64,000 nt of DNA from Spironucleus salmonicida. Taxonomy: Eukaryota. A program made the position numbers and the translations under genes. This document shows, piece by piece, positions 11,175 to 58,750 of the stretch (the first letter of the stretch is position 1; each line of letters opens with the position of its first letter). A model generated the notes under the pieces. The model was not told the DNA's origin. It did no database searches and saw only the letters and a program-made list of their open reading frames with translations. The DNA lies in NCBI RefSeq assembly GCF_000497125.1, contig NC_090600.1, forward strand, positions 806,001 to 870,000, read 5' to 3'.

Positions 11175-12340
11175 TAAAGGAGCGGAAATTTATTTTGTAA
11201 TTTAACATATAATAATAAGTTAATTTTTCCGCAAAATGAACACCGAAAGGCTGTCTTTGACAAAACTGCATGCCACACCTTCCATGCAGACGTACAACCG
11301 CCAGCTAGCGTCCTCAGATGCTTCAATGCCGTTCAACGCGATCGGCACATAGCTGGTACCACAAGTTGGGACGATAGTGACGACGAGGTCCGGAAAAGTC
11401 GCATTTTCGGCTATGTAGGACAATGCAGATATCCCAGCGTGCCTAGTACAAAAAGTGAGGTCGCTGTACGCCGAAAAGCCGGTGACTGTGCGCCCGCAGA
11501 AAGTAGAGATCTCGGGCAACGCAATGCGCGGTCTGGTGGGCAGAAAGTGCTGCGAGGACACGGACTGCAGAAACTGGGAGCGCAAGGTGTGAGGTATTGG
11601 TTTTGCACGATTTGTGTTCTGGCAGCCTCGCGCGGGAATGTGAGTTCGCGAAATGGAGGAACTCTGGGCCGAATTCCGCCAGCCTGTGCGTTGTGGGGCC
11701 ATTTTGGATCCATTTAAAGCAATTTGGCCGAAGAGACGAACGGGTGAGAATAAGGTGCGGCAGCAGTTTTCAGGAGACTCCCGGGCTCCCATCCGAGCGT
11801 AATCGCAAGCGAATAAAGTAATAGTGCAAATATACAGTATAATACATAGTTCCGCTTCAACAATGCCCGCGCAGATGGCACAGCGGCGCACTGGCCTGGA
11901 GATGATGTGTGATGGGACGACCGGGAGGGTTTCTGGACATGATGGGTGATGCGAGTAGACAGCCGGTATCTCAGAACGGGATGGGCGGCGGAGTCACAAA
12001 AAGAGATCGCATATGCACGACGTGGGGCTCTGCCAGGGTGCGTGGAAAATATCCGCGAGGCCATGGCTGGTGGGCGGAGCCTCAGGGCTGGAAGGTCGCG
12101 TTAATGGGCACATTTCTGCCGCAATTACCGCAGGCCGAACGCGCAAACGCACAACATGGTGGGTAGCGTTAAATGATTGGTCCCCTCTGGCGACGGCCTG
12201 CTGCAAAAAGATTAAAATGCTGCTAGCCTACCTGCTGCTCCCTTCGCCAGCACGCATCTCGCCCACGCCAACCCCCACGGCACGCAGGGTGCCGCAGATT
12301 CCCCTTCCCGTCCGCTCCACGAACCCCACGAACCCCACCA

Positions 12341-12784
12341 ATGACCGCCCAGCTCTCCCGCCTCCGCAAAGAGCTCGTCGAGTTCCAGCAGTTCCCCGCC
12401 TTCGCCGGCGGCCCGGGCGACGACCTGCGGCACTGGAAGGTGGCCTTCCAGGGGCCCGCGCAGACGCCGTTCGAGGGCGGCACCTTCCACCTCGCCGTGG
12501 CGTTCCCGCTCGAGTACCCGTTCAAGCCCCCGCAGGTGCGGTTCACGAGCCGGGTGTTCCACCCGAACGTGAGCAGCGCGGGCGACATCTGCCTGGACGT
12601 GCTGAAGGCGGAGTGGAGCCCGGTGCTGAGCATCTGCCGCGTGCTGATCAGCATCCAGAGCCTGCTGGACGACCCGAACGCGATGAGCCCGCTCAACGGC
12701 GACGCGGCGCGGCTGTTCCGCGAGAACCGCGCGCAGTACGAGCGGCAGGTGCGGAAGTACGTGCGGGCCTACGCGAGTGAGTGA
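12341..12784 (+). CDS. ubiquitin-conjugating enzyme E2 (Ubc4/5-like), 147 aa
   Basis: PFEGGTF..YPFKPP..FHPNVSSAGDICLDVL..WSP; active-site Cys84. Confidence 0.95.
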   Translation: MTAQLSRLRKELVEFQQFPAFAGGPGDDLRHWKVAFQGPAQTPFEGGTFHLAVAFPLEYPFKPPQVRFTSRVFHPNVSSAGDICLDVLKAEWSPVLSICRVLISIQSLLDDPNAMSPLNGDAARLFRENRAQYERQVRKYVRAYASE

Positions 12785-12794
12785 AGCCTCTACA

Positions 12795-12876
12795 GACTGG
12801 GTGGCCGAGCGGTTAAGGCGATAGCCTGCTAAGCTATTATACTCTGTATGCGTGGGTTCAATTCCCATCTCAGTCG
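12795..12876 (+). tRNA. tRNA-Ser(GCT)
   Basis: Acceptor stem GACTGGG/CTCAGTC, D arm TGGCCGAGCGGTTAAGGC, anticodon arm ATAGC-CTGCTAA-GCTAT, long variable arm, GGTTCAATTCC. Confidence 0.95.
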
Positions 12877-13295
12877 ATTTGCGGGAGCAGAATGGCCGTC
12901 GGAGGCGAGGATCGGCAGCGCAGGTGCGCGATCCTGGCAGCGGCTGGGAAGGCATGCGCAGTCCGCATATATCTGCGGCAGCCTGCGCAGGGCGAGAGGG
13001 ACGTCCCGTGCAGTTTCGCGTGTGGCCGTAAGCTGCAACGGGACGTCGCGAGGCAGCGTCTGCGTACTCAGCCCAGCGGAGTGCGTTATCCCGGCTGCCG
13101 CGCCTTGGGCCTATCGAACGTACTTGGTCGGCATCAATAATGTGCCGAAGTCTCCCGCGCCAGGCCGGGAGGCTGCTAGGAGAGGTGCGCCCGCCCGCAG
13201 CCATTGCGCTGTCTGGTGGGTATTCACTGCTGCCCGGCGGAGGAGGCCACTCTTGCACACTCGGCACGCCGGAGCGGAAACTGAAAATGAAAGGA

Positions 13296-13985
13296 TCACT
13301 ATCTGACATAGACGCCGCAGTCGGGGACGATGACGCTGGGAGGGCAGTTGGTGTCGGGGATGACACAGTCATCGCAGTTCTCGAGGCCGCACTTGAAGAT
13401 GAAGTTGGGTCTGGTGGCGAGGCCGGACTCGCAGCTGAGGTCGGCGTTGCAGTCGACGTGCATCTCGACGAGGAACTTGAGGGCGACGAAGCCGGTGGGG
13501 ATGGTGCCGCTAAGCTGGTTGCAGGTGAAGTGGACCTCCTTGAGGAAGAGCAGGTTGCCCATGCAAGTAGGGATGGCGCCGGTGATGTCGTTGTTGTTCA
13601 TGTAGACGAACTGCACGTGGGCGAGCTGGCAGATGCACTGTGGGATAGCACCAGTGATGCCGGCATTGTTGGCCTGGAGGTACTGGAGCCCGGTGAGCTT
13701 GCAGACCGAGGCGGGGATGGTGGTGGTCATCTTCTGGTCGTTGAGGTACAGGGACTTGAGCACGGGGAAGGAATCAAAAACATCGGCGAGCTGGCCCGTG
13801 AGCCCGAAGCCGCTGAGGTCGAGCCCCACGACGAAGTCCTGGCTGTTGCAGGTCACGCCGGCCCAGGTGCACACGGAGGCGCTGGTGGTCCAGCCGACGG
13901 AGCCTTTCCAGCTCGCACCGCCGTTGGCCGCGTAGATGGCGTCAAGCGCTTGGCGCTGTGTGAGGACTGCCAGGATGGAAATCAT
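13296..13985 (-). CDS. CWP1: cyst wall protein (Giardia CWP1-like, LRR plus Cys-rich tail), 229 aa
   Basis: TQRQAL..GASW..CTWAGVTC..LDLSGFGLTG..LQYLQ..IPTC..FLKEVH..CNQLSG; ends TAG(Q) TGA. Confidence 0.9.
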
Positions 13986-14551
13986 TGAGGGAAGGGAAAC
14001 GTGGTAGGGGCGCGTAGGGCCGCGTGGTGTAGGGTGGAGGAAGGGAGGGAAGGCATATGTCCTGGAAGGGTGCCTGGGCGCAGTCCCGGTCCTGCTGGGC
14101 TGGCGCCGCTAGCACATCGAGATGCAGCGGCATAACCTGTCTAGGCCCAGTCCGTGGTCTGCCTTTTATACTGATGGCCCGCCCACATCAAGCATACTGC
14201 GCTCCTGGATAGGTCGGGTTGAGAGCATCGTACCGCCCGCCGCCGAGATATACCTGCAGCGTACGGCATCCCCTCCTGCACGTTGAGGGTATTACGATAT
14301 AATGTAAATACTTGCGTAAATTTTTTATATTGTTTCCGAAAATAGTTACTCATGAATACATTAATAATACATTAATAAAACCCCTCATGGAAAAACTAAA
14401 ATTGCAAAAAATAATATCATTGAATATATATAATATTTTAATATATTTTAAATGAATTATACATATTATAATTGATTTAATAAACAAGATCGTTCGTAGC
14501 ATTTCTCGCCTATTTACTTTATATAATATTATGATATAAAAATCTACCAAA

Positions 14552-17500
14552 ATGATTCTATCGCATGCGCTTATAGTATTGTATACTGCCGTGGACTTCA
14601 CGAAGCTCAACAACGTCTAGAATGAGAACTTTGTCCTGAACAACAATATCACGCTGAACATCTTAAACCAGCCCTTGATCGACCAGTTTGTTGGGTCCCT
14701 CTCAGGTGCCCGAAACACGCTTAAAATCACGGAAATACAACCTGGGGGCTCTCTCTTCCAGTAATTCGGCGGTAGTTTCAGCAGCGTAAGTGTAATTGTC
14801 GAATTCGAAATCGGGTACTCCATCGTGCTCGCGCAGGAGTTGCGTGGTGCTCAGCTGCGTGACGCAGCGTTCCGTATCTAGAGTGACGGCGTGCGCAACG
14901 CCCCTGAAATTACATTTTTCAGCGAAATCACAGACGCGACGCTTGGGCGCTGCGTGTTCACCATCGTGTGCAACGCGGCTCCCAGCACGTCATACAGGAT
15001 TTTTGGGATCGCCTTTTCTATCAATAAACTACATACAGAGGGACTTGAGGTGCATATTATTGCCAAAAATGCGTTCCAAGTTGCCGGACTCTGCCGATAA
15101 CTCGGTGCCACATTCCCAGCGCTAGTAACCCTGGGAGGACAGGAAATTGAGGAGGTATTTGGTATAGCGCTCGCCAGTTCACAGCCCCTGAACGCTCTGA
15201 TAGTTCGTATTGTTATACGTGGGATGCGCCTGGTCTGTGGTATCGCGCGGGATGTGTGTGGGGTCGAAAACTCACAAATTTTGCTCATTTTCACCTTGAA
15301 AGAGGGCACTACGGTCATATACGGTGTAGCACGGTCAATTGAAGGACCGTTACATGAGTTATAATTGCAGATAGGTGGAATTTTCCGCTCCAATATGCCC
15401 GCCGAACTCGCGTTTTTGGGTGGTGATCTAGGCGCAAAAACAACGATTTCTCACGTTGCGATTCTCGCAGAGTTCAGCCTCACGGGTGGAGCCCTTAAGA
15501 TGGCGCTACTGGCATCTGGATCTGCTCTTGGCGCCGAGGTACGCTTTCTGGCGATGAACGCATCTATAGAGGCCGAACATAGCGCTTTGTAGCCGATCTA
15601 CTGTTTCTCTGCTGCGGTATAAGATGTAATTATCGAAATGTTGGCCATGAATTTCTCGCTACAGGGGTCGATATCGGGCGACTTTGGAGGTTTCGGAATC
15701 GCTCCCTCGTTAGTGGGGTGCAAATTTACGAATTTTACGATCAATTTCGCGTTGAGAATAAGCGAAATTTCAGGCACCTTGACCTACTGCGCACTGGGTA
15801 TTTATGTGGAAGAAATCAGAATCAACAACGCATCGTTTTACAACTACGTCTTAATAAGTTCTGCTGCTAACGCGATCGGTAGCACAATCTTCGGACTCGC
15901 CAAACAGCTGGTGCGGTCCGACTTGAATTATGTGATCGTATAAAACTAGATCTAGGTAAGATATGCGTCAATTTAGGCATTTGCTGGCCTCGCAGACCAG
16001 CTCATGGATGTGACGATTAACATTCTTGTGCTCTGTGGCACCGTAAATTTGCAGAACCAAGGACAGATTTGCGGAATCGCCAGAATGGGGAGAAAATCGT
16101 ATTTTGTGAGCCTCATGATCAACTTTCATATCGAGAGTTCCAACAACGCAGAGTGTATCTTGTTTTTCGATATTTGCGACAGTAACTAGTTCATAAATAT
16201 TGTCGAACAGGCGAATAACATGCGCTGTCTGAATGACGTGAAATACATCATAACCGACACAAAAAATAACAAGGTCAACTATTTTGCAATGCAAGGGTCT
16301 GGCAAAGAACGTATTTTGTAGACCATCAGCAGGGCCCAAATGAAAGCTGGAGCAGAGGTTAACGAGCTCTTGAAAACGGACAAGTGGGAAGTTGACTCTA
16401 AAAACGATGGCCTTGTGCGCCTTAAAAATTTCTTCTCCGTGAAATCTACGTAATTTGCAGAGGAGGCGAATCCAGAAATTCAGCCGTTCACTCAGTAGCA
16501 AACGACGGCCTTTTTGTACATAAACATTAAAAATCAAGAGAACCTCTGCTTCGATAACTGCTAGGGTACATTTGACGGTAAATAATTAGTATGTAAACAG
16601 GGATATACTGGCGTCGGTTGTGAAGAGTTTGAGTGCAAGGTAGATTTCTGCTAAGATGGTGCTACATGCAATAGAGTTCACGGCTGCGAGTGTGTATCCG
16701 GAAAAGGTGGGGTCTAGTGTGAGATCGACCTGTGTCCATTCTGCCTAGGTGGATATTCTAATTGCGATACGAAATTTAGCTTTCCAGTCTGCATAAACGA
16801 CTAGACAACAACTTGTCATCATGGTATTGTAGTTAATAACTTTTGCGCATGTTCAGACGGATACACAAGTGTTAGCGGTATTTGTGATAAATTTGCTTGT
16901 AAGGACTCGGATGATTGCAACGGAAATTTATGTAAGGACGAGATCTGCCACTGTGTGAGTAAAATGGGTGGAATAAGCTGCTAGTTTTGCACAACGCCTG
17001 GTTAACGGGATTGTAAAAATATATGCTCAACAGGTAGCTGCTAGTACGGTACTGCGTGTGTTTATTTGACGGGAAATAGTGGGATTTGGGAATGTTCAGC
17101 GTGTATGGTAGGTCATATTCCCCCATTGTGTTAAGACTGTTTTGTTGGCTATATTAAGCATGGTGATGCCTGTCTTTAAAAATGTGAAGAGTGTCATACC
17201 GGGGACTGCTATTTTCTAGAACCATGTGCTCAGCCAGCCGCACAATGTAATACTAAATGCGTATCATGCTTACCAGGCATCAGCGGCGAAAGATGTGACA
17301 AATGCCCAGTTGGCTAGCAATTTTATGAATACTCTTGCTACCCCTTAGAAGACGAGAAGCTAACCAATGGAGTGTGCATTAAGATTGAATCGAAGACTAT
17401 CTGTTTTTCTTGCCTTGCAGATTTTATTTTGATTGACGATTAATGCATTTTCTAGTGTCTTCCAACAAATTGTATTAATGGTGAGTGTTAACCCGACCAA

Positions 17501-20500
17501 TCTTGTCTGTGTAAACGCTACGCCCTGGGAAAACATTGTGATTCTTGTTAGTCAGGTACGGGTAGCTTTATGGGATAATGCCTTTAAATATGTAATGGAT
17601 GTAACGGAGATTGTTACTATGATCGTGGAGAGATAGTATGTTCTTCCTGCAATGATAATTTTTAAGGACCACCATGTTAGGGATGTTGGACAGGGTTTAT
17701 CAATATAGGGACTGAATGCCTAGAAGTCTGTCACAAATGCTAAGGTGATAGATGCTATATTACTATTTCTGGTAACTTTGTATGTTTGGGCCCATGCTAA
17801 GCCGGATATATCTTGGACGGTTGCTTTACTTGTGATACATCTAATGGGTTTGTGGCGGCTCTTGGCGGATGTTTTCAGCAATGCACCACGTGCTCCCAGG
17901 GGACCTGCTTCCAGACTCCATCCGGAATACAGTGTTCGAGCTGCTCTGGATCGTTCACTGGCCAGTAGTGCGATGTTTGCCTGGATGGTTTTGTCTTCGC
18001 TGAAGGCACGTGCCATACATAGGTAACCGACGATGAATGCTACATTGACGGGACTGGGAATATGATCTGCTTGCAATGCCTCGCAGGCAAGGTTCTCGTC
18101 GACCAGCAATGTCTAGTAAAGTGCGTGCTTCCAGACTGCGCGGGGGAGTGCTATCACAAGGTCCCCTCATACTTTTGCCGCAGCTGTTACTTCGGGTTTA
18201 TATTCCATGAGAACAAGTGCTACCCGCCCACTTCAAACCCGAACGGGGACTGTTTCGTTCTTCAAGACAGAACGTTATGTAGTTGCTACAAAGGGTACGC
18301 TGGACCCTCTTGTGACGAGTGCTCGGAGCTGGAGAAAGGGGGCAGCTGCTACTACCGAAACGACGTAGCCACCGGGTCTTGTTTCAGTAACGCCGACGAC
18401 TCTCTGGATAGCTTCTGCCAGCAGTGCTAGTACAACTACGCGATGCCGCTCTGTCTCAGCTGCGCAATGGGATACGCAATGGATTCATCTGGTGAGTGCA
18501 ACGAGTGCCAGCCTGGTTACACCAGCTCCAATTCTCTGCCTCCGAGCGAGAGAGCAATTATTGGAGATAATAGGTGTCTGATTTCGTGCGCAGATTGCGC
18601 TCAGGGGAACTGCTTCTATGCGGGAGAGTCGATCTTATGCGCGTCCTGTTCGCCTGGCTACGCTATTTCCACAAACTGTCTCTAGTGCGAGGATGGCTTT
18701 GCTGAGTTCGGGGGCTACTGCCTTACCTCTGGTACCAGTTCCTGTGGGGAGGACAACTCCGGCGATACGTATTGTACAACGTGCGGGCCATAGTAGTAGT
18801 CATTCAACTGCTCCTTGTGCACAGTAGAGGGCACTTTCGGGTCGGATTGTAAGCAGCACGCAACTCACTTCCCCGGAGAGTGCTACTAAACTAGTAGCAC
18901 CGTAACATGTACAGATGCACCGTGCCTTAGTTTTGACATAGCATCTAATTAGTGTCTTATCTGCAGGTCAGATCTTATAAATATAAAGGGATATTGCGGA
19001 ACGATTACTCTCCCACAAAACGACAAACTGCGAGGTAATTGCATAAATGTAGGTACTTACTAGGTATGTGGTACGTGTTAAAAAGGCTGGTCTGGAAATA
19101 TCTGTTCAGAATGTGATAAAGGTTATATAAGATGTTAATGTAATACTGAATTATTTTAACATTGTTGTTGTCCGCTATTACCATTATTGAATGGAGTATG
19201 TTTTACTACTCAACTAACCTCGATAATCTGTGAATACTGTGGACCTAGGTATGAATTATTATAAAAATAATGCGTTCAATAAAATATCTCTATTACTAAG
19301 TTAGTTACAATAGTTTTAGTTCCCATATTAACAGGATTTTTATTATTAATAATTTTGGTATTGTTGGTTAAATTATTTAAAGTAAAAAGAAGATAAATTT
19401 TTATTTCGGTGAAGCGAATCATCAAGCGTATTGGGCCGCATCTTGTATTTGTTATATTATCCTAGGCATTAGCAATTATTATTGCAATCCAGGATGTTTA
19501 TATTGGCGACTTTTTCATGTAAATTTCAGTAAATATCTTCTCAATGATACCATTCATACTGGCATTCTTCTTTTTAGCTGTTCCAACATATAAGTAATTT
19601 TTCTATAATCTACCGTCGCACTTCTTTCTTTTTGTATTATCAGCACTAATCGAACTTAGTTTCCATTTCACTTAGTATATAGTAGTTTCTGAGGTAGTAT
19701 AAAATTTTGGGGAGTAAATTTATAAACTGGCTGGACCCCTTATAACACTACTAATGTGTATATGTCTTGCTGGATTCCGGTTTAAATCTTAGTAAAAATT
19801 ATCAGTTTTTATAGCAGTTACTGTCCCACTCATATCTTAGATTATGTATGCAATTTTAGATTCTGAATAGTCAGGTTATTTTTCAGAATCATCTATTTGG
19901 AATATTATATCTGGATAAATGATGGTTACTATAGCAATCTTGTTGAATGGTGTGTAATTTTACTTGTTTGACCTCATTTTAGGGAAATATGGTGAAATAG
20001 AGGCTATTGGACGGCTTGCATTAGCTTCATTCATGGTAAATAGCATGATTGGGCTTACAAATCCTGGAGAAATAATCAATTCCATACTTTAGTATGATAT
20101 ATTCTTTTCTAGTCTATGTACGTAAATATTTTTTAACTTTATAAACATAATAATAATGATGCATATTTCAGCAGTAGAATTTGGAATTAACCTAATTTCA
20201 TCAGCTATTTGGGCATAATTTATATCAGCAGTAGGTGAATTTTATATCGCTAGTAACAATAGTTACAATATATCCCTTATATCTCTTATTTTATAGTCTT
20301 TATCATTAGTTATAGTTTTCGTTAGTTTACTATATTTTAATATAAGAAGCTCATATTGGGATCATCGTAACAATGACAAACTTTCTAAAGAGTCTATAGC
20401 AATAACAGGTGTAAATGAATTCATTAAATCCAGAAGATAATATAAACAACTGTTCAAAAAAATGCAATAAAATAAACTTCATGACAATTTGAGCTAAGTT

Positions 20501-20800
20501 ACACATAATTAAGTACTAAAAGATATGTAATCTAAATTAAATTAGATGAATTAACCATACAACTAAACTACACTGAGGTAAAATACTGGAAGTTGCTTTA
20601 TGTAAGATATAGTAAAACAAAAATCATCTAGATAAGTGTATTACCTTAAAAATAATGACACATTAATTACTAAGCTACCGCAGAAACAAAACAATAAAAC
20701 TGTTGGTTAATTGTAATTGGCCTCAGATTAAATTTGTTAAAGCTAAGATTTATCTTTTCATAGTATTCATTAATACATGGACTAAAATAAATTTAAGTGA
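14552..20800 (+). CDS. giant cysteine-rich membrane protein A, 2082 aa: N-terminal beta-rich domain, EGF/CxxC repeats, TM helix, ~10-TM SLC35F/DMT-like domain
   Basis: Track fragments at 14891, 15365, 15638, 16004, 18062 and 18443 share one frame linked by TAA/TAG; ends AAG TGA. Alternative in-frame ATG at 14531. Confidence 0.85.
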
Positions 20801-21427
20801 TTATTACATATAATAATGATATAATTTGTATAAAAATTTATCTTAAGATTAACTATAAAGTGTACTATTATTTCCATATCAGATATAAACTAAGAATAAA
20901 TTAACTGTTAATATAATGATTTATTAGTATTATTATACAGGCCTCTTTATTATTTTACTACAAAATTAAAGCAATACATTATTTTTATTTTGTTATGTTC
21001 TATTACACTTAATATTTAAAAATATATTATTACATTTTTAAAATACTAATTATAAAACATAGAATTTAATTACGAATTTGTTTATCATTTATTTTAATTT
21101 TATGATCTGATTATATCGTAATATCCTCAACGTGCAGGAGGGGATGCCGTACGCTGCAGGTATATCTCGGCGGCGGGCGGTACGATGCTCTCAACCCGAC
21201 CTATCCAGGAGCGCAGTATGCTTGATGTGGGCGGGCCATCAGTATAAAAGGCAGACCACGGACTGGGCCTAGACAGGTTATGCCGCTGCATCTCGATGTG
21301 CTAGCGGCGCCAGCCCAGCAGGACCGGGACTGCGCCCAGGCACCCTTCCAGGACATATGCCTTCCCTCCCTTCCTCCACCCTACACCACGCGGCCCTACG
21401 CGCCCCTACCACGTTTCCCTTCCCTCA

Positions 21428-22117
21428 ATGATTTCCATCCTGGCAGTCCTCACACAGCGCCAAGCGCTTGACGCCATCTACGCGGCCAACGGCGGTGCGA
21501 GCTGGAAAGGCTCCGTCGGCTGGACCACCAGCGCCTCCGTGTGCACCTGGGCCGGCGTGACCTGCAACAGCCAGGACTTCGTCGTGGGGCTCGACCTCAG
21601 CGGCTTCGGGCTCACGGGCCAGCTCGCCGATGTTTTTGATTCCTTCCCCGTGCTCAAGTCCCTGTACCTCAACGACCAGAAGATGACCACCACCATCCCC
21701 GCCTCGGTCTGCAAGCTCACCGGGCTCCAGTACCTCCAGGCCAACAATGCCGGCATCACTGGTGCTATCCCACAGTGCATCTGCCAGCTCGCCCACGTGC
21801 AGTTCGTCTACATGAACAACAACGACATCACCGGCGCCATCCCTACTTGCATGGGCAACCTGCTCTTCCTCAAGGAGGTCCACTTCACCTGCAACCAGCT
21901 TAGCGGCACCATCCCCACCGGCTTCGTCGCCCTCAAGTTCCTCGTCGAGATGCACGTCGACTGCAACGCCGACCTCAGCTGCGAGTCCGGCCTCGCCACC
22001 AGACCCAACTTCATCTTCAAGTGCGGCCTCGAGAACTGCGATGACTGTGTCATCCCCGACACCAACTGCCCTCCCAGCGTCATCGTCCCCGACTGCGGCG
22101 TCTATGTCAGATAGTGA
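21428..22117 (+). CDS. CWP1: cyst wall protein, copy 2
   Basis: Protein identical to 13296-13985. Confidence 0.9.
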
Positions 22118-22536
22118 TCCTTTCATTTTCAGTTTCCGCTCCGGCGTGCCGAGTGTGCAAGAGTGGCCTCCTCCGCCGGGCAGCAGTGAATACCCACCAG
22201 ACAGCGCAATGGCGGAGGGCGGGCGCACCTCTCCTAGCAGCCTCCCGGCCTGGCGCGGGAGACTTCGGCACATTATTGATGCCGACCAAGTACGTTCGAT
22301 AGGCCCAAGGCGCGGCAGCCGGGATAACGCACTCCGCTGGGCTGAGTACGCAGACGCTGCCTCGCGACGTCCCGTTGCAGCTTACGGCCACACGCGAAAC
22401 TGCACGGGACGTCCCTCTCGCCCTGCGCAGGCTGCCGCAGATATATGCGGACTGCGCATGCCTTCCCAGCCGCTGCCAGGATCGCGCACCTGCGCTGCCG
22501 ATCCTCGCCTCCGACGGCCATTCTGCTCCCGCAAAT

Positions 22537-22618
22537 CGACTGAGATGGGAATTGAACCCACGCATACAGAGTATAATAGCTTAGCAGGCTATCGCCTTAA
22601 CCGCTCGGCCACCCAGTC
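22537..22618 (-). tRNA. tRNA-Ser(GCT), copy 2
   Basis: Reverse complement of 12795-12876. Confidence 0.95.
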
Positions 22619-22628
22619 TGTAGAGGCT

Positions 22629-23072
22629 TCACTCACTCGCGTAGGCCCGCACGTACTTCCGCACCTGCCGCTCGTACTGCGCGCGGTTCTCGCGGAACAG
22701 CCGCGCCGCGTCGCCGTTGAGCGGGCTCATCGCGTTCGGGTCGTCCAGCAGGCTCTGGATGCTGATCAGCACGCGGCAGATGCTCAGCACCGGGCTCCAC
22801 TCCGCCTTCAGCACGTCCAGGCAGATGTCGACCGCGCTGCTCACGTTCGGGTGGAACACCCGGCTCGTGAACCGCACCTGCGGGGGCTTGAACGGGTACT
22901 CGAGCGGGAACGCCACGGCGAGGTGGAAGGTGCCGCCCTCGAACGGCGTCTGCGCGGGCCCCTGGAAGGCCACCTTCCAGTGCCGCAGGTCGTCGCCCGG
23001 GCCGCCGGCGAAGGCGGGGAACTGCTGGAACTCGACGAGCTTTTTGCGGAGGCGGGAGAGCTGGGCGGTCAT
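22629..23072 (-). CDS. ubiquitin-conjugating enzyme E2, copy 2 (E11K, G81V)
   Basis: As copy 1, but RKKL and SSAVDICL. Confidence 0.9.
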   Translation of the reverse strand: MTAQLSRLRKKLVEFQQFPAFAGGPGDDLRHWKVAFQGPAQTPFEGGTFHLAVAFPLEYPFKPPQVRFTSRVFHPNVSSAVDICLDVLKAEWSPVLSICRVLISIQSLLDDPNAMSPLNGDAARLFRENRAQYERQVRKYVRAYASE

Positions 23073-24081
23073 TGGTGGGGTTCGTGGGGTTCGTGGAGCG
23101 GACGGGAAGGGGAATCTGCGGCACCCTGCGTGCCGTGGGGGTTGGCGTGGGCGAGATGCGTGCTGGCGAAGGGAGCAGCAGGTAGGCTAGCAGCATTTTA
23201 ATCTTTTTGCAGCAGGCCGTCGCCAGAGGGGACCAATCATTTAACGCTACCCACCATGTTGTGCGTTTGCGCGTTCGGCCTGCGGTAATTGCGGCAGAAA
23301 TGTGCCCATTAACGCGACCTTCCAGCCCTGAGGCTCCGCCCACCAGCCATGGCCTCGCGGATATTTTCCACGCACCCTGGCAGAGCCCCACGTCGTGCAT
23401 ATGCGATCTCTTTTTGTGACTCCGCCGCCCATCCCGTTCTGAGATACCGGCTGTCTACTCGCATCACCCATCATGTCCAGAAACCCTCCCGGTCGTCCCA
23501 TCACACATCATCTCCAGGCCAGTGCGCCGCTGTGCCATCTGCGCGGGCATTGTTGAAGCGGAACTATGTATTATACTGTATATTTGCACTATTACTTTAT
23601 TCGCTTGCGATTACGCTCGGATGGGAGCCCGGGAGTCTCCTGAAAACTGCTGCCGCACCTTATTCTCACCCGTTCGTCTCTTCGGCCAAATTGCTTTAAA
23701 TGGATCCAAAATGGCCCCACAACGCACAGGCTGGCGGAATTCGGCCCAGAGTTCCTCCATTTCGCGAACTCACATTCCCGCGCGAGGCTGCCAGAACACA
23801 AATCGTGCAAAACCAATATCTCACACCTTGCGCTCCCAGTTTCTGCAGTCCGCCCATTGCGTACCTAATGACAGGAAACGCGCATTCCTAGACTGAAAAT
23901 ACAGCAGAACTGTCATTAGGGCCAAAAACTTGTCCGAAACCCACGATCCGGACACGTTGAATATCCTAATTCTTTATCTAATTCCAAACAAAAAATAATT
24001 ATTATTATATTATAATACAATCATTTTATATTTGAAAATTTCATTTCACAAATATATACATTATTATATAAAAACTTAACA

Positions 24082-25017
24082 TCACATGAAACCTCCGTTT
24101 TTCAGTTTCTGCCCGAACGCTTCGAGTTCGTCAATTCCCCTCACCTCGGTCTCGCCCAGGCTCATGAAAACGAGCGCAAAGTCCTCGTACAGCTCCTTCA
24201 TTTGCGTGATGTACTTGGACTGCATTTTGCTTCGGGCCCTGCAGAAACCGCAGTCGTTTTGGCAGTCCAGGACCTGGTTAACGACAACGCTGCCGCAGTC
24301 AATATCTAGTCTCATGAGCTACTGGACGAGGCGCTCCGTCTCGTAAAGCGACAGAAACTCTGGAATGCAAACGCAGACGAATTGCGTCATGTTCGGATCC
24401 TTGAACTGCTGCTCCACCTCATCGCACTGGTCGAAAACGGCGGTTACCTTGTCCATATCACCTGCTTCGCCGCCCATCATTTAGAGCATCGGGCCCATCA
24501 TCTGCTTCATCGAGGTAAAAATCGTCTTCATCTGCTTAGCGGTCTGGGGGATTTCCAGGAAACGTAGCGTGTGGCCTGTTGGCGCAGTGTCGAAAATGAC
24601 GGTTTTATAGGTGTTCTGGGTCGCGATATCCATGACTTCCACGAATGACATGAGCTCATCCATACCTGGCATAGATGATTGCGCGAAAAGGTTCATAATG
24701 GGCTAAAATGCAGCATTTTGCTCGGCAGCATTCTCATTTTTGAATTTTTTGGTGGGGTTTATCTCCATAGCGAATAAATTCGGTACTGAGTTAACAGCTG
24801 TTGGAGTATCAGTAAACTACTGCGAGAATGCGTCGGATAAGTTATGTGCTGGATCTGTAGAAAGAATAAGTGTTTTATCATTGGTAAGAGAATTTTTGTG
24901 TGCGATTTGGATTGCGAGAGAAGAAGATGTTGTAGTCTTGCCAACACCACCTTTTCCACCTACAAATATCCAACGGAGGTTAGAGTCGATAATGTGTTAA
25001 AGATTATTTGACGACAT
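24082..25017 (-). CDS. GET3: GET3/ASNA1 (ArsA-family) ATPase, 311 aa
   Basis: [61 protein letters not shown]. Confidence 0.95.
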
Positions 25018-25157: not shown

Positions 25158-26321
25158 AATCGATTATAAAATTTGGATAGATAGTATCAACAAGTTAGAA
25201 TTTCTTGGCGCATACCAATGTCTTGAGATTATCATGAATGCATTTATAAAAGTTGAAAATCAATGAAAATTATCCAATAAAGTATGTAAGGTCATTGCCC
25301 ATACTGCATGTGTTTGTCGTAGTGAGATGGATGCATCTTCGAAAGCAGCCTTATTTCATTGAAAAATGAAAATAGAGAATATAGTCAGACGTCCATCAAG
25401 TAGCATTGCTCCTCAATGCCACAATCGTTGGTCCCTCTTACAATCCTGAAGAATCCATTTTCACCCCAAGTTGCACTCCAAGAGTTTTTGAGGATCCAAA
25501 ACTTAACGTGGTTCTCCTCGCCATATCCGACGAAATTTACTGCGTGACCGCCAACTGGACCACCGAATACATGCTAATAAATTCCACTTTCATAATATGA
25601 AAAATCTTCATATGTGGTTAAAGCTGTTGTCACAGTACCTATCTGAAGAGCTTCAAGAATTGATTGCTCATTCTGGCAGACAAATTTAAAACTTTTAGAA
25701 CGAGTCTTCTCGGGAAGAGAAGATCCATCGTCACACTTAGTATCACATGGCAGTTAATATTATTAATAAGATAAGCAACTTTCTGGGACTGTGCCGGTCT
25801 TTTGAAGGAAATTCTAGACTAAGGGAAGATATCCACCAGTACAGCCCACCTCAAGAGTATCGCAATCAACTAGATATTACTCAGACAGAGGAGTTCTTGC
25901 ATCATCTTTGGAGGCAATACAAAGATTGTCAGCAAGCTAGTGGCTAGCAGAGAAAGCCCAGCATGATGCGCACCGGTTCTAATCACGAACAGTTTCTGGA
26001 CCAACACACTTAGGTCTAAGCTCTGGCCAAGATAATTACTTAGCAATGGGCTTTCCATTACTTGCAAATGGGGCATGCGGTTGAGATCTCTATTTAAGAA
26101 TTGGGGAAAGTCTAGCTTAAAACTCTTATCTAGTTAACTCTGGGTCAAATTTCGGTTTCCAAGTAAGCCTGGGTGTATTAATAAGTTGTTGATACACTTT
26201 TTCAGAGTGCATGAACTACGAGAGCACTGCAAGCATTTCTGGAATGGGCAGTTATACTGGTGTAATGTAAAATTATTTACATTAATTGTTAAATAAATAG
26301 CTCCCCTCCAGTTGAGCAAAT
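25158..26321. repeat. inverted segmental duplication IR2, left arm (1164 bp)
   Basis: Reverse complement of 28079-29242 (paired coordinates sum to 54400). Confidence 0.97.
25385..26236 (-). CDS. cathepsin B-like papain-family cysteine protease, 283 aa
   Basis: [37 protein letters not shown]. Confidence 0.95.
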
Positions 26322-26569
26322 TTAAGAATCAAAAAGTAAAAAATTATAAAGTAGTCTATTTAACATAGATATAATAAATAAATAATCAAGATATAAATAT
26401 ATCTTTAATATACTTCATTTGGAATCATAAATAACAACTATAGTTTTCGTCAATATTGAGATATAAAAAAAGCTATGCTTAAAATAAAAATAAAGGAAAT
26501 AACCATTTATAATGATCATTCTATCAGTATTATGATTAAAATCATGAAAAATATATATATTTGGAAATG

Positions 26570-28078: not shown

Positions 28079-29242
28079 ATTTGCTCAACTGGAGGGGAGC
28101 TATTTATTTAACAATTAATGTAAATAATTTTACATTACACCAGTATAACTGCCCATTCCAGAAATGCTTGCAGTGCTCTCGTAGTTCATGCACTCTGAAA
28201 AAGTGTATCAACAACTTATTAATACACCCAGGCTTACTTGGAAACCGAAATTTGACCCAGAGTTAACTAGATAAGAGTTTTAAGCTAGACTTTCCCCAAT
28301 TCTTAAATAGAGATCTCAACCGCATGCCCCATTTGCAAGTAATGGAAAGCCCATTGCTAAGTAATTATCTTGGCCAGAGCTTAGACCTAAGTGTGTTGGT
28401 CCAGAAACTGTTCGTGATTAGAACCGGTGCGCATCATGCTGGGCTTTCTCTGCTAGCCACTAGCTTGCTGACAATCTTTGTATTGCCTCCAAAGATGATG
28501 CAAGAACTCCTCTGTCTGAGTAATATCTAGTTGATTGCGATACTCTTGAGGTGGGCTGTACTGGTGGATATCTTCCCTTAGTCTAGAATTTCCTTCAAAA
28601 GACCGGCACAGTCCCAGAAAGTTGCTTATCTTATTAATAATATTAACTGCCATGTGATACTAAGTGTGACGATGGATCTTCTCTTCCCGAGAAGACTCGT
28701 TCTAAAAGTTTTAAATTTGTCTGCCAGAATGAGCAATCAATTCTTGAAGCTCTTCAGATAGGTACTGTGACAACAGCTTTAACCACATATGAAGATTTTT
28801 CATATTATGAAAGTGGAATTTATTAGCATGTATTCGGTGGTCCAGTTGGCGGTCACGCAGTAAATTTCGTCGGATATGGCGAGGAGAACCACGTTAAGTT
28901 TTGGATCCTCAAAAACTCTTGGAGTGCAACTTGGGGTGAAAATGGATTCTTCAGGATTGTAAGAGGGACCAACGATTGTGGCATTGAGGAGCAATGCTAC
29001 TTGATGGACGTCTGACTATATTCTCTATTTTCATTTTTCAATGAAATAAGGCTGCTTTCGAAGATGCATCCATCTCACTACGACAAACACATGCAGTATG
29101 GGCAATGACCTTACATACTTTATTGGATAATTTTCATTGATTTTCAACTTTTATAAATGCATTCATGATAATCTCAAGACATTGGTATGCGCCAAGAAAT
29201 TCTAACTTGTTGATACTATCTATCCAAATTTTATAATCGATT
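28079..29242. repeat. inverted segmental duplication IR2, right arm
   Basis: Reverse complement of 25158-26321. Confidence 0.97.
28164..29015 (+). CDS. cathepsin B-like cysteine protease, copy 2
   Basis: MLAVLSQ...; catalytic Gln (encoded by TAG), Cys, His and Asn all present. Confidence 0.95.
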
Positions 29243-31239: not shown

Positions 31240-32886
31240 ATGAGGTATACTTTTACACTGGCGAGCTACAATCTCCAGGAAGGCGAAGTACTGAGAGTGG
31301 TGTCTAAATGCAGTGACTTTCCGGTGGATGGAATAGACCTCATATATAAAAATGAGCAGCTGTAAGGTTCGGTTATAATTTCTAAACCATTTCCGCCCCA
31401 AACGACGTATAGTTATGTCTCTAACCTAAATGACACGTATTCTGATCTAAGATTAATGTAGTTTTAATCAGTAAATGTAGCCCTATATGATGATTTTGAA
31501 CCTTCATCCAGGGACCCTTGGAACATTTCACCATTAAAAACCATCTTTCCAACCATTAAACCCGAACGCTCCATAATCGACTCCAATATTTCTACGTCTG
31601 CATTTAATTGTGTCTTGGTGTTCCGAGTCTTAGCCGCATACCCTGTGAGCCGTATGAGCGTATGTGGCTCGTTTACAAACTGGACAGACAACCTCCCCAT
31701 GCGATACGTTGGAAACCGGTCCTTTGAGGCAGAGCTTCAACTACCGAAAAATCAGTTTATCCAGTTCAAGTATTTTGCTGACGACTACGAAGCGGGGGAG
31801 CACAGGAATATTACCGCATCTGAGCCCATAACGGTCATTAACTCATTTTTCAGATTCGGTGATAACCGGCTGAAACTTGGCGGTCTGACCGTGGACATGG
31901 ACGTGCTAGCTCTAAACTATTCGAACTTGAAGACTGTAACCGATATTGCCGCCCAGAGCAGGCTTAGTGGCGTAAAACTGCTGCAGAATACACAGTGTGT
32001 GAGCTCATTTGCACTGAACCCGATATATCTGGATACCTCACTTTTAACCCTATCAGGTGACAAGGTGCTCCCCGGTGAAGCGCACATGCGTGCGTGGTGG
32101 GCGCAGAACGGCAACAATATTTTGCTCTAAAAGGCGCGGAACTGGGCCAAAAGTGCTGTAATAACATACTGGCTGCCCGGCTACTGCCTATTCATGGCTC
32201 TATCACACGAGTTCGGCTCTACAGACCCCATTACATGGCCAGAAACTTCCTTCTTCAACTAGTGTGCTTTTGAAGTGCTGAGCCCTCTGGAACGGGAAAC
32301 GTTCATTTTAGGCTTCTCGGGATTGGGGGTGCTTCAGGACGAGCTAGACACGTAACTTTACCTACAATTCGTGCTACACGGGCAGCTTCTGGGTGCAGCT
32401 CGCTACGCGGCCGAGCGGCGTATTTTCTTGCAGGGTGACTTAGAGCTAGCGGGGTCAGCGCACCCTCACGATGTCTGGCAGTTTGGAGCACTCCGGTATA
32501 ATTTTGCAGGGGCAGATTCCGCCGGCATCCTACACGCTGGGCGGATTTTTTCGTTGAAGGCGCTATATTTCGGGGCTTTTGAGCTGCTGGGGATTGCAGA
32601 TGTTTGGGAAGGTGATTTTTACGACAATTTCAGGCAGCTGAAGAGACTGACGAATAATATGCTAATAGTAGACTATTGTGATGGTGCACTCGAGCGGCTG
32701 GGAATTCTGTCACGCGATAAAGGCTGGCTAAGCTAGAGCTCATTTAAGAGCGAGGCATTGGTAGCGTATCTAGATTTAAGCTCATTTTTAGGCTGTTCTA
32801 GATAGTTATAGCTCTAGAAAGGTTGTGTGGATGAGTTGGGTGTAGAGCTATTAAAAATTGCAGAAAGTACAGGAAGGGCGTAGTGA
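31240..32886 (+). CDS. degenerate 4-alpha-glucanotransferase (DPE2-like: carbohydrate-binding modules plus GH77), 548 aa
   Basis: VCGSFTNW..QFKYF (CBM); SSFALNPIYLD; WLPGYCLFMAL; LHGQL..AAERRIFLQGDL..DVW. Confidence 0.8.
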
Positions 32887-33390: not shown

Positions 33391-36300
33391 ATGTTTCTAA
33401 CATTGAACGTTATTTTAATAGAAAAAGCAGATGACTTTAGACAGCTTAATATACTTAAGGATGCTAATTTTGCTATTCTTACGGATTTGACAATATAAGT
33501 GTCAGAATCTTCCTCAATAAAGCAGTTTAGTGGGGCCCTATCTGGAGCGCGTAATACATTAAAAATAACTGATATTCAATAAGGAAGTATGTTTATAGAG
33601 AACTTGTCTGGTTTTCTTAGTAATATTAGAATAATTTTAGAATTCGAAATTTAAATTTCTATCCTATTGATTTAACAGTTGAACGGAGCTACTATTTACG
33701 ATTCTTGGTTTCTAATTGAAAGTAGTAATATAAATAATAACGTAGATATTTCATATTTTAACGAAATCTTTAATTCCGAATTCACCAGATGCAATTTTGC
33801 TATTACTTGCAATATAATTTTTAAGACAGACGTTAAAATTTTTGGACTATCCAAAACCATAGATAGCTTGAATTCTAGATTTTTACATATAAATTTGTAA
33901 ATATCTAATTCATCTTAAGTATTTGGACTCTGTAAAATGCTCAATAACGGTTTTCCAGTTGCTATTGTTCTTGATATAAAAGACTCTAACTAACTATTTG
34001 GGATAGCTTCAAGTTGTGTTGGTACTTTGTCATAAGTTAAGGTTAACATAATAGGGAGGGAGGTTAATGAAATTTATGGAATTTCATAAAATGCTAATAA
34101 TATTATCAGTTGCTAGATTATATTAGAAATCTGTTCTTATTCTTCATTGCCAAATATTAATATATATGGGGTTACTGATATATTGTAGGGTAACATAGCA
34201 AAATTGAAACTATAAATTAGGGTAATTTCATAGAACGCAGGAAATATTTTTATAGATTAAATAGCATAATAGATAAATTATAATATCAAAATATCTAATA
34301 TTGCAATTCAATCATATTATGAAAAATTAGATACTACATTCTTAATAACATTATTAGCCAGGAATAGTATAGAAAATGTTGAAATAGCTTCTATATCCTG
34401 TAATTCATCATTACTAATGGAAAATTCATAATCATAAGGGATTTCATACTTCTATAATAATTTGAAGAATGTTTAGCTAGATGAAGTATCACTGAATTTA
34501 ACTATTAAAGGAGATCATGATGGAGAATTTAGTAGTTTTGGTATCGGGAAGATAAATTAAAACTGTAAGTTTACCAATATCTCATATAATTTTAATATTT
34601 AAATAAATAAAATAGGATACTGTTTAAATACGTACAGTTTGGGATTAGAAACAGATAATCTAGTTATTTAGAATGCTTCATTTCATAATTATATTAACAT
34701 AAAACAGGGCTAATATCATAATAAAGGTGTTATATTTGGTATATGTAAATCTATAAAATCGAGTATATTAAATTATATAATTGTTTAAAATGAAATAAAG
34801 ATAGAGTTATTAGGTATATCTTAATTTAGTGGGGTTGCGGAGAAAATTATGGATACTAATATTAATTTCATAATAGTAAGTGGGAATATTGAATTATAAA
34901 ATACTGGAATGTTCTTTGGTGTTGTACCTACTTTTAAAAGAAATATTTTAAAGAATCTTCTTATGAATTTTGTCATTAATACCCCTGAAAGCTCAAATTG
35001 CGATATTATGTTTGATAATTCACACGATAATAAACTTTATAATATAGTTGATTAATCTACAGTTATAAACAGTGTAGATGACGCCTTTATTGTCGTATAA
35101 CAGAGCGGGAATATTTATGAGAATATGTATATAGTTAATGCATCTGGTAAACAAAATGGATCATATACTATAAGTTATGATGCTATGAAAGCTGGGGCTG
35201 AGGTTAATATTTTATTAGCAACTGGTGACTGGATAGTGGATTAAAAAAATAGTGGCTTGGTTCGGTTAAAAGGATTCTTTTCTGTTGATATTACTGGATT
35301 CGTAGAAGAAGTTATACCAGAAATTTAACCATTCACTTAATAATAAATAAAGAAATAAATATTAATAAATATTAAAAATTAAGAAAATCTATGCATACTT
35401 TAGTGCTAAGGTACGTTTAATGGCCGATCTTTGACATGTAAAGATGGATATAAAGGTTAAAATTGTGATGAATATTAATGCAAACCAGGATTTTGCTAAG
35501 ACGGTGTGTCATGTGATGAACTTAAAGGTTGCTAATGTAAGGAAGGAAAAACTGGAGAGTAATGTTAAATTGATCTTTGTAAGTTTTGTTTTGGTGGGGC
35601 TAATAGCTGTAATTTTATACCGAAATTCCCAAGGTGTAATAACGATTAAACATCAACATGTTATCATGGCTAGGTTGTTAACAATTTATGTATTTGTTTT
35701 AATGGGTATGCGAATAAGTATAGTATTTGTGATACATTTGAATGTCGGAATAAACTTGATTGCAATGATAATACTTGTTATGATAGGCACTGCCATTGTT
35801 CTGAACGATAAGGTGGGATCAGCTGTTAGTTTTGTATAGATCCAAATTAGGAAGATTGTAAAACACCTTGTAGTAAAGAATGGTGTTAGTATGGTGTAGG
35901 ATGTGTATATTTAACTGGTAATAGTGGAATTTGGGAATGTTCAGCATGTTTAGTAGGGTATAAATCGCCTTTGTGTAAAGACTGTGTAGTTGGATATGTT
36001 AAACAAGGTCAAAAATGTCTTTAAAAATGTGAAGAGTGTCATACCGGGGACTGCTATTTTCTAGAACCATGTGCTCAGCCAGCCGCACAATGTAATACTA
36101 AATGCGTATCATGCTTACCAGGCATCAGCGGCGAAAGATGTGACAAATGCCCAGTTGGCTAGCAATTTTATGAATACTCTTGCTACCCCTTAGAAGACGA
36201 GAAGCTAACCAATGGAGTGTGCATTAAGATTGAATCGAAGACTATCTGTTTTTCTTGCCTTGCAGATTTTATTTTGATTGACGATTAATGCATTTTCTAG

Positions 36301-39300: not shown

Positions 39301-39648
39301 TGTGATATTCGATAGTAAGAAAATCCTGATAAGAACAATATCAAGTCGAAAAAACTTTTAGCTATGATGTTAAACAATGATAGTACTAGTAATGATGATG
39401 AGAGTATAAATAATTTAACAAAAATTCCAAATTCTACATTTGAGGAACCCTTAGTTATTAATTACTAATAGCCGGATACTCATACATGTTCCATTAAATA
39501 ATATAATGCTTTGGGTAGCAAATTAACCATATAAGATCAAAGCAATATGTTTCCAACAATTCAACTTGCTTCATAGGAAATATCATATAGTCCAATAAAA
39601 GCAGATTTAAAACTACAAACGTTTTTAGATGTTTAAAACTTTAAGTGA
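33391..39648 (+). CDS. giant cysteine-rich membrane protein B, 2085 aa, paralogue of 14552-20800
   Basis: Shares LSGARNTLKI, the Cys-rich repeats and the C-terminal multi-TM domain; single code-6 frame ending AAG TGA. Confidence 0.85.
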
Positions 39649-45243: not shown

Positions 45244-46188
45244 TCACCATTTACCCATAGCTCCTGGGTTGAGCATATTGCCGATCTCGGCCCTACCATC
45301 AAAATCCACACTACACTCGAATACTATGTATTCCCTAACTCCATTTTAGCCCATTTTTACTATAGCGGCCAAATTTTGCTTATTGGTATATCTGGGAGCG
45401 CTCCATACCGTGCTTAGCAGGTCGTTGAAATAGATCATGTAGCCGTCATTCTGCATCTGGTGGGACCGAAATATATGCTGAAGGTCATTTTCGTAACAGA
45501 ACTTTTTTGCTACCAGCGCCCCAAATCCACATCCAGCACCCCGTGAGCTTTTCTCGAAGGTCGATATATCGATCGATGGGTCCGACCATAGAAGGTCGTT
45601 GATGATGCACTACTAGGACTCGGGAAATTCTGAAAACCGTGGAATCGCGTTGATCTGTGACATACTGAACAACGATGGTGACAACCCCGCGTGCACTGCA
45701 AATGTCGTGTAGTCGCCTGACTTTATAGCCGCCGCGAGTGGCATTGTTTCGAAGCAATCGATCATGGCCCGCCAAATTTCCCTTGGAAAGTCTGATATTT
45801 TAGCTGTGATCTCAGTCGAAAAGCCGTAGTTGGAGCATATTTTTGCGTCCTCGTGGTTACCGCGGATCATATGAAATGAGCGCGGGTGCATGCATTTGAG
45901 GGCCAAAAGGAGCGAAATTGTCTCAATCGAATGCTGGCCCCGATCGACGTAGTCACCCAGTAGCAAATAACGAGTAGTAGGGGGAGGACCCGCGATGGTG
46001 AATATTTCCAGCAAATCGAACAGCTGGCCGTGCAAGTCCCCTACTATGGTCACTGGGGAGTCAATTTGCAGAAGATTAGGTTCTGCTGCAAAGAGTTCGG
46101 TTGCTTTTTGGACTGTTTGTAGGATTAGTGAAGTGGGAGGAAAGATATTGGCATGGATAAGCTCGATTAGCTGAGCTGGACCGTCCAT
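45244..46188 (-). CDS. Ser/Thr protein phosphatase (PPP family, PP2A/PP4/PP6-like), 314 aa
   Basis: GDLHGQ, GDYVDRG, RGNHE, DLLWSDP, RSHQ, TVWSAP. Confidence 0.93.
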
Positions 46189-58123: not shown

Positions 58124-58750
58124 TCGGAATTTGGAACGGTCAAAATGTGCCTCGGCCGCGCGCGGGCGCGAACTCGGGGTTGGGCGCGGGGCGTGCTCTG
58201 CGCACTAGCAGATGACATCATGTCCATGCCACGAGTAGCCTACATGCGCTAATTATCACTATTATAGCTACAATGTCCCTTTACAGCAATGCTACTTTGG
58301 CTACCTGCCTTAAGATCCAGTTATAAGTCACACTGCTATCAGGCTATTTTACGCCTTAGCACTGAAAACCTAAATAGAGCTAAAGCTTAGTCCTCTTGTC
58401 TACACCGCTAAACTCATGCACGGATTCACCGCGTAGTATCATATGACGCATTCTAGCTTATAATTTGCTCAAACCTTTATACTCACCGGAAAACCTCATA
58501 ATTTATCTATTTTCACCAATTCCTGCACTACCTCGATACCCACGTTTTAAATATTTCAACCCTCCAAATTAGCTCATAATTAACCCCCACACAACCCCAT
58601 CCAACCCCCTCCACCCCCCTCCACACCCCAATTACCACCCACACCACAAACGTAAATTCCACATCCTTCGCCATTTTCTATTTTTATTTTCTATTATTAC
58701 ATACTATTATTATACATTAATTTTCACTATACCACATTTTCCCCTTCCAA

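Follow-up and report, generated by a model that had tools for sequence, protein, structure and literature searches.

Carriers of the drug/metabolite transporter (DMT) type are known as compact, free-standing proteins of ten helices, and the cysteine-rich (Cys-rich) surface proteins of diplomonads are known as single-pass antigens. A family of predicted fusion proteins in the diplomonad Spironucleus salmonicida fits neither description. One of its genes is located on the plus strand at positions 14552-20800 of a 64,000-nt stretch of contig NC_090600.1 (RefSeq assembly GCF_000497125.1, positions 806,001 to 870,000 of the forward strand), which is called the window throughout. A first-pass annotation, made from the letters of the window, had described this gene as a Cys-rich, EGF-like ectodomain that is continued by a transporter of the SLC35F/DMT type. 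The locus raises the questions whether the two parts really belong to one protein, which folds they adopt, and whether a domain at the end of such a chain could still act as a carrier. We found that both parts are encoded in one open frame, that the C-terminal domain has a predicted DMT fold, and that the ectodomain consists of a Cys-rich stalk preceded by a predicted beta-helix.

Reading frame and fold of the ten-helix domain

Under translation table 11, eight open reading frames (ORFs) of at least 150 aa were found, none of which covers the gene. Under NCBI table 6 (code 6), in which TAA and TAG encode Gln and only TGA stops translation, a single ORF spans the region (14531..20800, plus strand; 2,089 aa, with 88 TAA/TAG codons read as Gln). 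Starting from the ATG at 14552, the whole coding sequence (14552..20800, plus strand) comprises 2,082 codons and a terminal TGA. These 2,083 codons include 52 TAA, 35 TAG and one TGA, the stop codon, and the remaining two frames of the plus strand contain 36 and 52 TGA codons. The coordinates and the code proposed in the first-pass annotation were thereby verified. The start codon is found in the context CCAAAatg, and AAAatg is described in passages of PMC3916229 as the common initiator in S. salmonicida. The database copy of the protein (P0003, 2,082 aa) also begins at the ATG at 14552; the residue numbers of the parts follow P0001. The paralogues of P0003 are labelled merely 'Transmembrane domain-containing protein'.

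From the N- to the C-terminus, the domain order is a hydrophobic N-terminus, a beta-helix, a CXXC-rich stalk, a single transmembrane (TM) helix termed TM0, a K/R-rich linker, ten TM helices, and a tail. No gap and no restart of the frame was found between the stalk and the TM part. This confirmed that the stalk and the ten-helix part share one open frame, and they are predicted to form one protein.

The ten-helix domain (19436..20347, plus strand) comprises residues 1636-1939. The hydropathy profile contains a very hydrophobic segment at 19283-19393, where a TM helix had been placed at about 19300-19380, and about ten further hydrophobic segments up to residue 1939. AlphaFold2 (AF2), run with an alignment of 12 family sequences (A1), yielded a model of the domain with a pLDDT of 75.4, a pTM of 0.70 and ten long helices, in agreement with the about ten further helices noticed initially. 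The model was compared with the PDB using Foldseek, as the first-pass annotation had proposed for the C-terminal TM domain. This comparison resulted in 18 matches with E<=0.001; the rows listed at ranks 1-38 were all DMT carriers, and the first other protein followed at E 0.13. The DMT matches included LicB, PfCRT, Vrg4, SLC35B1, the CMP-sialic acid transporter, YddG and the triose-phosphate translocator (TPT), with TM-scores up to 0.62-0.69.

A search with VIA, which is independent of Foldseek, against 48,161 PDB representatives gave a similar picture. All eight chains with Z>=8 were DMT proteins, and their alignments comprised 241-299 residues and covered model residues ~15-337. The Z values were 20.7 for the CMP-sialic acid transporter, 18.8 for PfCRT, 18.5 for YddG, 18.1 for LicB, 17.6 for Vrg4, and 14.7 for SLC35B1, whereas the next match was a protein of the MFS with a Z of 7.9. 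Helical bundles can score a Z of ~13 by chance; because the DMT values of 14.7-20.7 lie well beyond this level, and the next match far below it, the claim is supported at the level of the fold. Language-model neighbours were retrieved from the Atlas. Nine of the cluster sets listed are linked to a Pfam family; these sets scored 0.96-0.97, and without exception they belong to the DMT clan. The families near the domain were UAA, EamA, SLC35F, Nuc_sug_transp, TPT, PUNUT, and CRT-like. Together, the predicted structure and the language-model neighbours support a DMT fold of the ten-helix domain, and the DMT-like character noticed in the first-pass annotation was thus retained at the level of the model.

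The more specific assignment to SLC35F was not supported. The SLC35F model PF06027 did not match at E<=10, and the Atlas neighbours were spread over several DMT families, with SLC35F assigned to 43% and 40% of the members in two of these nine sets. Sequence motifs resembling those of SLC35F had been quoted in the first-pass annotation. Besides PF06027, every other Pfam model also remained without a match at E<=10. A match of the TM domain to Stevor (Pfam, E 0.074) was rejected as noise.

The ten-helix fold is common to the domain and to the solved DMT carriers, i.e. the CMP-sialic acid transporter (6i1r, 6oh4), PfCRT (6ukj), YddG (5i20), LicB (7b0k, 7paf), Vrg4 (5oge), the triose-phosphate translocator (5y78), and SLC35B1 (9gry). 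However, the identity in the structural alignments is 5-15%, and there is no link at the level of hidden Markov models. The solved chains have 255-350 residues, whereas the Spironucleus domain is accompanied by an extra TM helix, a ~1,580-aa ectodomain in front of it, and a ~150-aa tail behind it.

TM0 (19283..19393, plus strand; residues 1585-1621) is a single, very hydrophobic helix with a peak hydropathy of 3.2, and it is followed by the linker (19364..19435, plus strand), which has 9 K/R in 24 residues. When the helices of the model were used to delimit the loops, 14 K/R were counted on the side of the linker and 0 on the opposite side. According to the positive-inside rule, this fits a cytoplasmic linker, an N-in/C-in orientation of the ten-helix unit, and an N-terminal part that is located outside or in a lumen. 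Because TM0 supplies an extra crossing, the ten-helix unit would obtain exactly the N-in/C-in topology that DMT carriers need. The tail of ~150 aa (20348..20797, plus strand) is rich in Q, N and K by composition, is presumably cytoplasmic, and cannot be aligned with the tail of the paralogue in the window.

The two parts of the ectodomain

The ectodomain of ~1,580 aa had been described as Cys-rich throughout. This is true for residues ~671-1584, but residues ~17-632 are Cys-poor, with 0-5 Cys per 100 aa. For this N-terminal part, AF2 (eight family sequences) produced an all-beta model with repeating strands and a pLDDT of 80-96 over model residues ~10-625. VIA reached Z>=8 with 189 of 264 chains, and the 50 rows shown had Z values of 16.0-21.2 with 275-354 aligned residues. 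The partners were NosD, IgA1 protease, phage tailspikes, PL6 lyases, polygalacturonases, and pertactin. Foldseek performed weakly on the same model, with four matches at E<=0.001, which all belong to a single PL6 lyase entry (TMq 0.14-0.15), and Pfam did not yield a Beta_helix or lyase match for the region at E<=10. Judged by the model and its VIA matches, residues ~17-632 are a right-handed parallel beta-helix of ~616 aa (14579..16426, plus strand), which was absent from the first-pass annotation. Many adhesins of bacteria and many enzymes that bind glycans adopt a parallel beta-helix. The solved right-handed beta-helix proteins, among them pertactin and other autotransporter passengers, tailspikes, PL6 lyases, polygalacturonases, and NosD, have this fold in common with the N-terminal ~620 aa, at an identity of 6-12%. 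Unlike these, the Spironucleus domain comes from a eukaryote and is attached to a carrier fold in the membrane.

The beta-helix is preceded by a short hydrophobic N-terminus, MILSHALIVLYTAVDF (14552..14599, plus strand), and the paralogues have similar N-terminal starts. It may serve as a signal peptide of atypical form. According to passages of PMC3916229, the signal peptides of diplomonads are difficult to identify.

The stalk (16541..19282, plus strand) is 914 aa long. Counted over residues 641-1590, it contains 14.5% Cys, 32 CXXC and 7 CXC motifs, and the Cys content of the whole protein is 7.5%. By pattern, an EGF-like nature of the stalk is plausible. The EGF-like repeats named in the first-pass annotation were not confirmed by Pfam, of which no family, EGF included, matched the stalk at E<=10. 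A phmmer search against the PDB sequences had uromodulin as its sole match (E 0.12), and the language-model search in the Atlas led to EGF_Teneurin/laminin clusters at 0.82-0.86, which we rated as a weak lead only. In the relative P0013, EGF_LMN_ATRN was found at E 0.042, below the cut-off, and one source labels relatives as 'EGF-like domain-containing'. The AF2 model of the stalk was poor, with a pLDDT of 25-50.

Family, selection and possible function

The DMT domain was found in 12 of the 13 family sequences examined, and these 12 represent 10 S. salmonicida loci on at least four contigs after old and new gene models had been merged. The sequences form two subfamilies that are ~25% identical, namely A (P0003, P0006, P0004, P0005, P0007, P0008, and P0023) and B (P0013, P0025, and P0030). 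In every full-length locus, a Cys-rich region and TM0 precede the DMT domain. The order of beta-helix, stalk, TM0, and DMT domain occurs in both subfamilies, and therefore the fusion is older than their split. P0007 and P0013 are without the beta-helix. P0024, which contains a beta-helix and a stalk, and P0013, which contains a stalk and the DMT domain, have consecutive accession numbers, and they may thus be two parts of one locus that was split, P0013 being the 3' one. Because the architecture recurs in the window paralogue and in eight further loci, the fusion is very unlikely to be a chance readthrough, as had been argued from the two window copies.

In the first database search, all six matches came from S. 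salmonicida or from the window. A phmmer search of all libraries yielded 14 matches at E<=0.001. Twelve were family members, nine of them named as or traceable to S. salmonicida. P0013 and P0014 are distant full-length S. salmonicida proteins encoded on another contig, and they are 25-27% identical in the domain. P0018-20 are three short fragments that are 20-28% identical to both subfamilies. The bacterial Ig-repeat proteins P0016 and P0017 matched via 9 and 18 short repeated stretches and were discarded as spurious. A profile search among proteins of 72-602 aa gave five matches, four S. salmonicida fragments and P0019. The corresponding search among proteins of 603-2000 aa gave one match, P0007, and is a weak search, since it missed P0013, which is in this range. 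A metagenome scan with the alignment A3 produced 96 pattern matches, 0 of which were confirmed.

The second family member in the window, P0006 (33391..39648, plus strand; 2,085 aa), is collinear with the gene over the full length, so that the equal architecture of the two copies, noticed initially, was corroborated. The overall identity is 63%, and it is 34% in the beta-helix, 86% in the stalk, 32% in TM0, and 74-77% in the DMT domain. The compositions of the two beta-helix regions were also compared. They differ strongly: in 150-nt windows, the GC content is 0.38-0.57 at 14552-16420 and 0.19-0.33 at 33391-35265. The encoded proteins are only 34% identical here; Ala, Gly and Arg abound in one of them, Asn, Ile and Lys in the other.

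A tract of ~1.95 kb within the stalk (17171..19120, plus strand) has 95-100% DNA identity to 36016-37965, whereas its flanks are 55-69% identical; dS in the tract is 0.03, and the copies are 19 kb apart. A second tract, 19421-19570 versus 38266-38415, is 97% identical at the DNA level and covers the first DMT helices. Judged by these sequence comparisons, the tracts are the product of mosaic, recent gene conversion between the two window paralogues. For the DMT part of the two copies, dN/dS is 0.14, and the unconverted stretch from TM4 to TM10 has a pN of 0.177 and a pS of 0.729, which is saturated. These values indicate that the DMT part is under purifying selection.

Nine full-length domains of the two subfamilies have 27 invariant columns. 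They include Q1645, Q1654, D1655, and Y1657 in TM1, K1732 in TM4, and Q1755 in TM5, and, in the later helices, R1828 in TM7, N1869 in TM8, and N1887, S1891, and W1894 in TM9. A substrate path needs fixed polar and charged residues inside helices, and a mere anchor does not. We therefore read these residues as a preserved substrate path, i.e. as signs of a putative working carrier or at least of a ligand-binding core.

In our view, the chances are about even that the protein is an adhesin-like ectodomain tethered to a DMT carrier that probably still works. According to this model, the gene would encode one type-I-like polytopic membrane protein, in which a beta-helix of ~620 aa would be placed atop a disulfide-rich stalk of ~900 aa on the outer or lumenal side of the membrane. 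TM0 would bring the chain to the cytoplasmic side, and the ten helices would adopt the N-in/C-in orientation. The ten-helix domain would be a DMT-type secondary carrier that operates by alternating access on a small, polar or charged solute, and the ectodomain would place, hold or regulate this carrier at a contact site. Topology, surface location, transport activity, and the coupling between ectodomain and carrier are inferred features of the model. A more far-reaching version, which we consider unlikely, is that the beta-helix and the stalk bind a ligand on a host or a particle and thereby gate or position the DMT domain, or that the conformational cycle of the DMT domain reports binding via the tail. 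If this version were true, solutes would be exchanged only where the parasite touches its target, and the family would represent a class of eukaryotic 'adhesin-transporter' (transceptor) proteins that uses the DMT fold and that arose in hexamitid diplomonads before the subfamilies split. The yeast transceptors Snf3/Rgt2 and Ssy1 have MFS or APC folds and signal via cytoplasmic extensions, and they are not known to have a giant ectodomain. They are similar in that a carrier fold is used, or is also used, to signal, but nothing in the Spironucleus gene shows signalling.

Several results weigh against a DMT carrier. In Pfam, the whole protein had no match at E<=1, the domain of either window paralogue, searched separately, had none at E<=10, and no family of the DMT clan matched eight further family members at E<=0.1. 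Four pieces of the protein and ten relatives also remained without a relevant match. The A1 profile had no match at E<=10 among all PDB sequences. The DMT assignment comes from a predicted model of middling confidence and from a language-model search. A comparison with hhalign gave a probability of 0.1 for a 5+5 internal repeat, and the two five-helix halves are implied by the structural match only. The conversion tract over TM1-TM3 accounts for part of the conservation of the DMT domain between the window copies. In addition, a free-standing relative was not found in the all-library phmmer search or in the profile search among proteins of 72-602 aa, word-based searches of this kind being weak.

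The main alternative is that the DMT fold has been kept without transport, as a membrane core by which a surface receptor or adhesin is anchored, forms oligomers or signals. It would then resemble the polytopic cores of certain apicomplexan proteins or transceptors that sense and do not carry. We regard such a core as possible, though doubtful. The ten-helix domain is too diverged for any DMT family model, the many paralogues have fast-changing ectodomains, as is the case for receptors or adhesins, and the long, variable cytoplasmic tail could recruit partners. A precedent exists in the apicomplexan cysteine repeat modular proteins (also abbreviated CRMPs), whose cores of nine TM helices form the heterodimer interface of an invasion complex according to passages of PMC9815656. 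However, at a dN/dS of 0.14 the DMT domain is the most constrained of the non-converted parts, compared with identities of 32-34% for TM0 and the beta-helix, and all ten helices are kept in every full-length member. Invariant D, K, R, N, and Q in helices that are ~25% identical also exceed what an anchor or a dimer interface usually needs. A further alternative is that the protein works in endomembranes, i.e. in the endoplasmic reticulum (ER), a Golgi-like compartment, or encystation or secretory vesicles, so that the 'ectodomain' would be lumenal and an SLC35-type nucleotide(-sugar) carrier would feed a lumenal process. The best structural matches include the Golgi and ER carriers CMP-sialic acid transporter, Vrg4 and SLC35B1, but the plasma-membrane or vacuolar carriers PfCRT, YddG and LicB match equally well. 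Likewise, the language-model neighbours are mostly clusters of nucleotide-sugar transporters, but the models Nuc_sug_transp, UAA and TPT were without a match. Copies of a leucine-rich repeat (LRR) gene, presumably of the type that builds the cyst walls of diplomonads, flank the gene on both sides, but the position of a gene next to others says little in eukaryotes. Of three S. salmonicida CRMP-1 proteins that were tagged, one was localised to ER-like structures, as reported in passages of PMC3916229. A beta-helix on a disulfide stalk of 900 aa is typical of exposed surface proteins. Overall, an endomembrane location appears improbable to us.

We assign a very small probability to an artefact of the gene model or a decaying gene, in which a single-pass Cys-rich gene, by chance or because a stop was lost, would run into an adjacent transporter gene or into sequence that is not expressed any more. 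TGA-only stops make long chance frames commoner than elsewhere, the annotation is devoid of domain names, and one family locus (P0024 and P0013) seems to be split into two gene models. Against this stand the single TGA among the in-frame codons compared with its frequency in the other frames, the equal order of the parts in 10 loci of two subfamilies, the purifying selection on the DMT part, and TM0, which gives the exact parity required by the DMT topology.

The domain architecture sets the family apart from the known Cys-rich membrane proteins (CRMPs) of diplomonads. Proteins of the CRMP-1/VSP type have one C-terminal TM helix and a short tail, as described in parts of PMC3916229, PMC11437800 and PMC9509377, so that the statement of the first-pass annotation about this class agrees with the definitions in PMC3916229 and PMC11437800. 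The excerpts of PMC11437800 specify less than 100 aa after the TM helix, and those of PMC3916229 describe a [KR][KR]X[KR][KR] motif in S. salmonicida CRMP-1. In the present protein, 476 residues follow TM0, and the motif is found nowhere. With its 32 CXXC and 7 CXC motifs, the protein exceeds the three CXXC/CXC motifs that are demanded as a minimum. As far as these sources describe them, Giardia VSP/HCMP proteins and S. salmonicida CRMP-1/CRMP-2 resemble the family in that a TM helix comes after an extracellular region with many CXXC/CXC motifs, and in mosaic gene conversion between paralogues. The fusion differs from the VSP, HCMP and CRMP classes by the ten additional helices after TM0 and the added beta-helix at the N-terminus, and it falls outside the single-TM, short-tail definition. 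Because current screens require a short tail after the TM helix, the fusion family is dropped by them. In the apicomplexan CRMPA/B and PCRMP1-4, Cys-rich modules of EGF-like type are likewise joined to a polytopic core within one chain, but these proteins have nine TM helices, and the core is not described as a transporter fold in passages of PMC9815656. None of the 14 matches of the all-library phmmer search was an apicomplexan CRMP, and no CRMP sequence was compared directly.

Passages of PMC3916229, PMC11437800, PMC6397501 and PMC9509377 do not mention a Cys-rich protein of diplomonads with a polytopic or DMT domain, and literature searches of titles, abstracts and passages did not reveal a paper on a fusion of a diplomonad protein with a DMT domain. 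The architecture is new, and its parts are known. If the carrier works, this tissue-invasive fish pathogen could tie the uptake or export of a solute to what its surface touches, and the family would offer a test case for the extracellular control of a secondary transporter. Were the carrier inactive, the family would be an example of a transporter fold that was recruited as a receptor core. In either case the question can be tested directly, since the family comprises just 10 loci and S. salmonicida is amenable to transfection.

Transcripts and genomic surroundings

Sequencing contigs from the runs X1-X4 of one study, which are presumed to be RNA, were compared with the gene. Exact or near-exact pieces (0-2 other letters, depth 2-6) cover parts of the beta-helix, the stalk, the DMT domain, and the tail. 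The pieces on the DMT part are located at 19416-19619, 19492-19662, and 19957-20236, and the tail is represented by 20435-20799. None of the pieces listed for the gene bridges the junction between the stalk and the DMT domain at 19172-19416. Long contigs over 17057-19172 contain 60 other letters at a depth of 14-22 and run into the sequence of the paralogue at both ends. The paralogue at 33391-39648 seems to be better represented in these runs, although contig depth cannot rank genes.

The gene lies in an AT-rich spacer of 6,806 nt between the two arms of an inverted repeat (11561-14303 and 21110-23852). The arms are 2,743 nt long and 100% identical, and their GC content is ~0.60-0.64, compared with ~0.41-0.47 in the gene. 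Each arm encodes an LRR protein with LRRNT_2 and LRR repeats (Pfam), which we take to be cyst-wall-protein-like. In run X3, one contig (depth 32) extends to 14332 and passes into a run of A with adapter-like letters behind it. This suggests that a polyadenylated plus-strand transcript terminates shortly beyond the left arm of the repeat; the LRR frame at this site is on the minus strand.

Seven further genes in the window were named using Pfam. They encode an ArsA/GET3-type ATPase (24082-25017, minus strand), a GH77-like 4-alpha-glucanotransferase with a CBM (31240-32886, plus strand), a calcineurin-like phosphatase (45244-46188, minus strand), a WD40 protein (48453-50912, minus strand), a dynamin-family GTPase (55372-56769, plus strand), a DUF676 serine esterase (58145-61054, plus strand), and an ornithine carbamoyltransferase (62193-63146, minus strand). 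None of these seven neighbours suggests a link to the fusion gene. The window also contains an inverted pair of genes for papain-family cysteine proteases (25385-26428, minus strand, and 28164-29015, plus strand; Peptidase_C1, E ~1e-53). The two genes face away from each other, and their printed protein sequences are identical over the common part.

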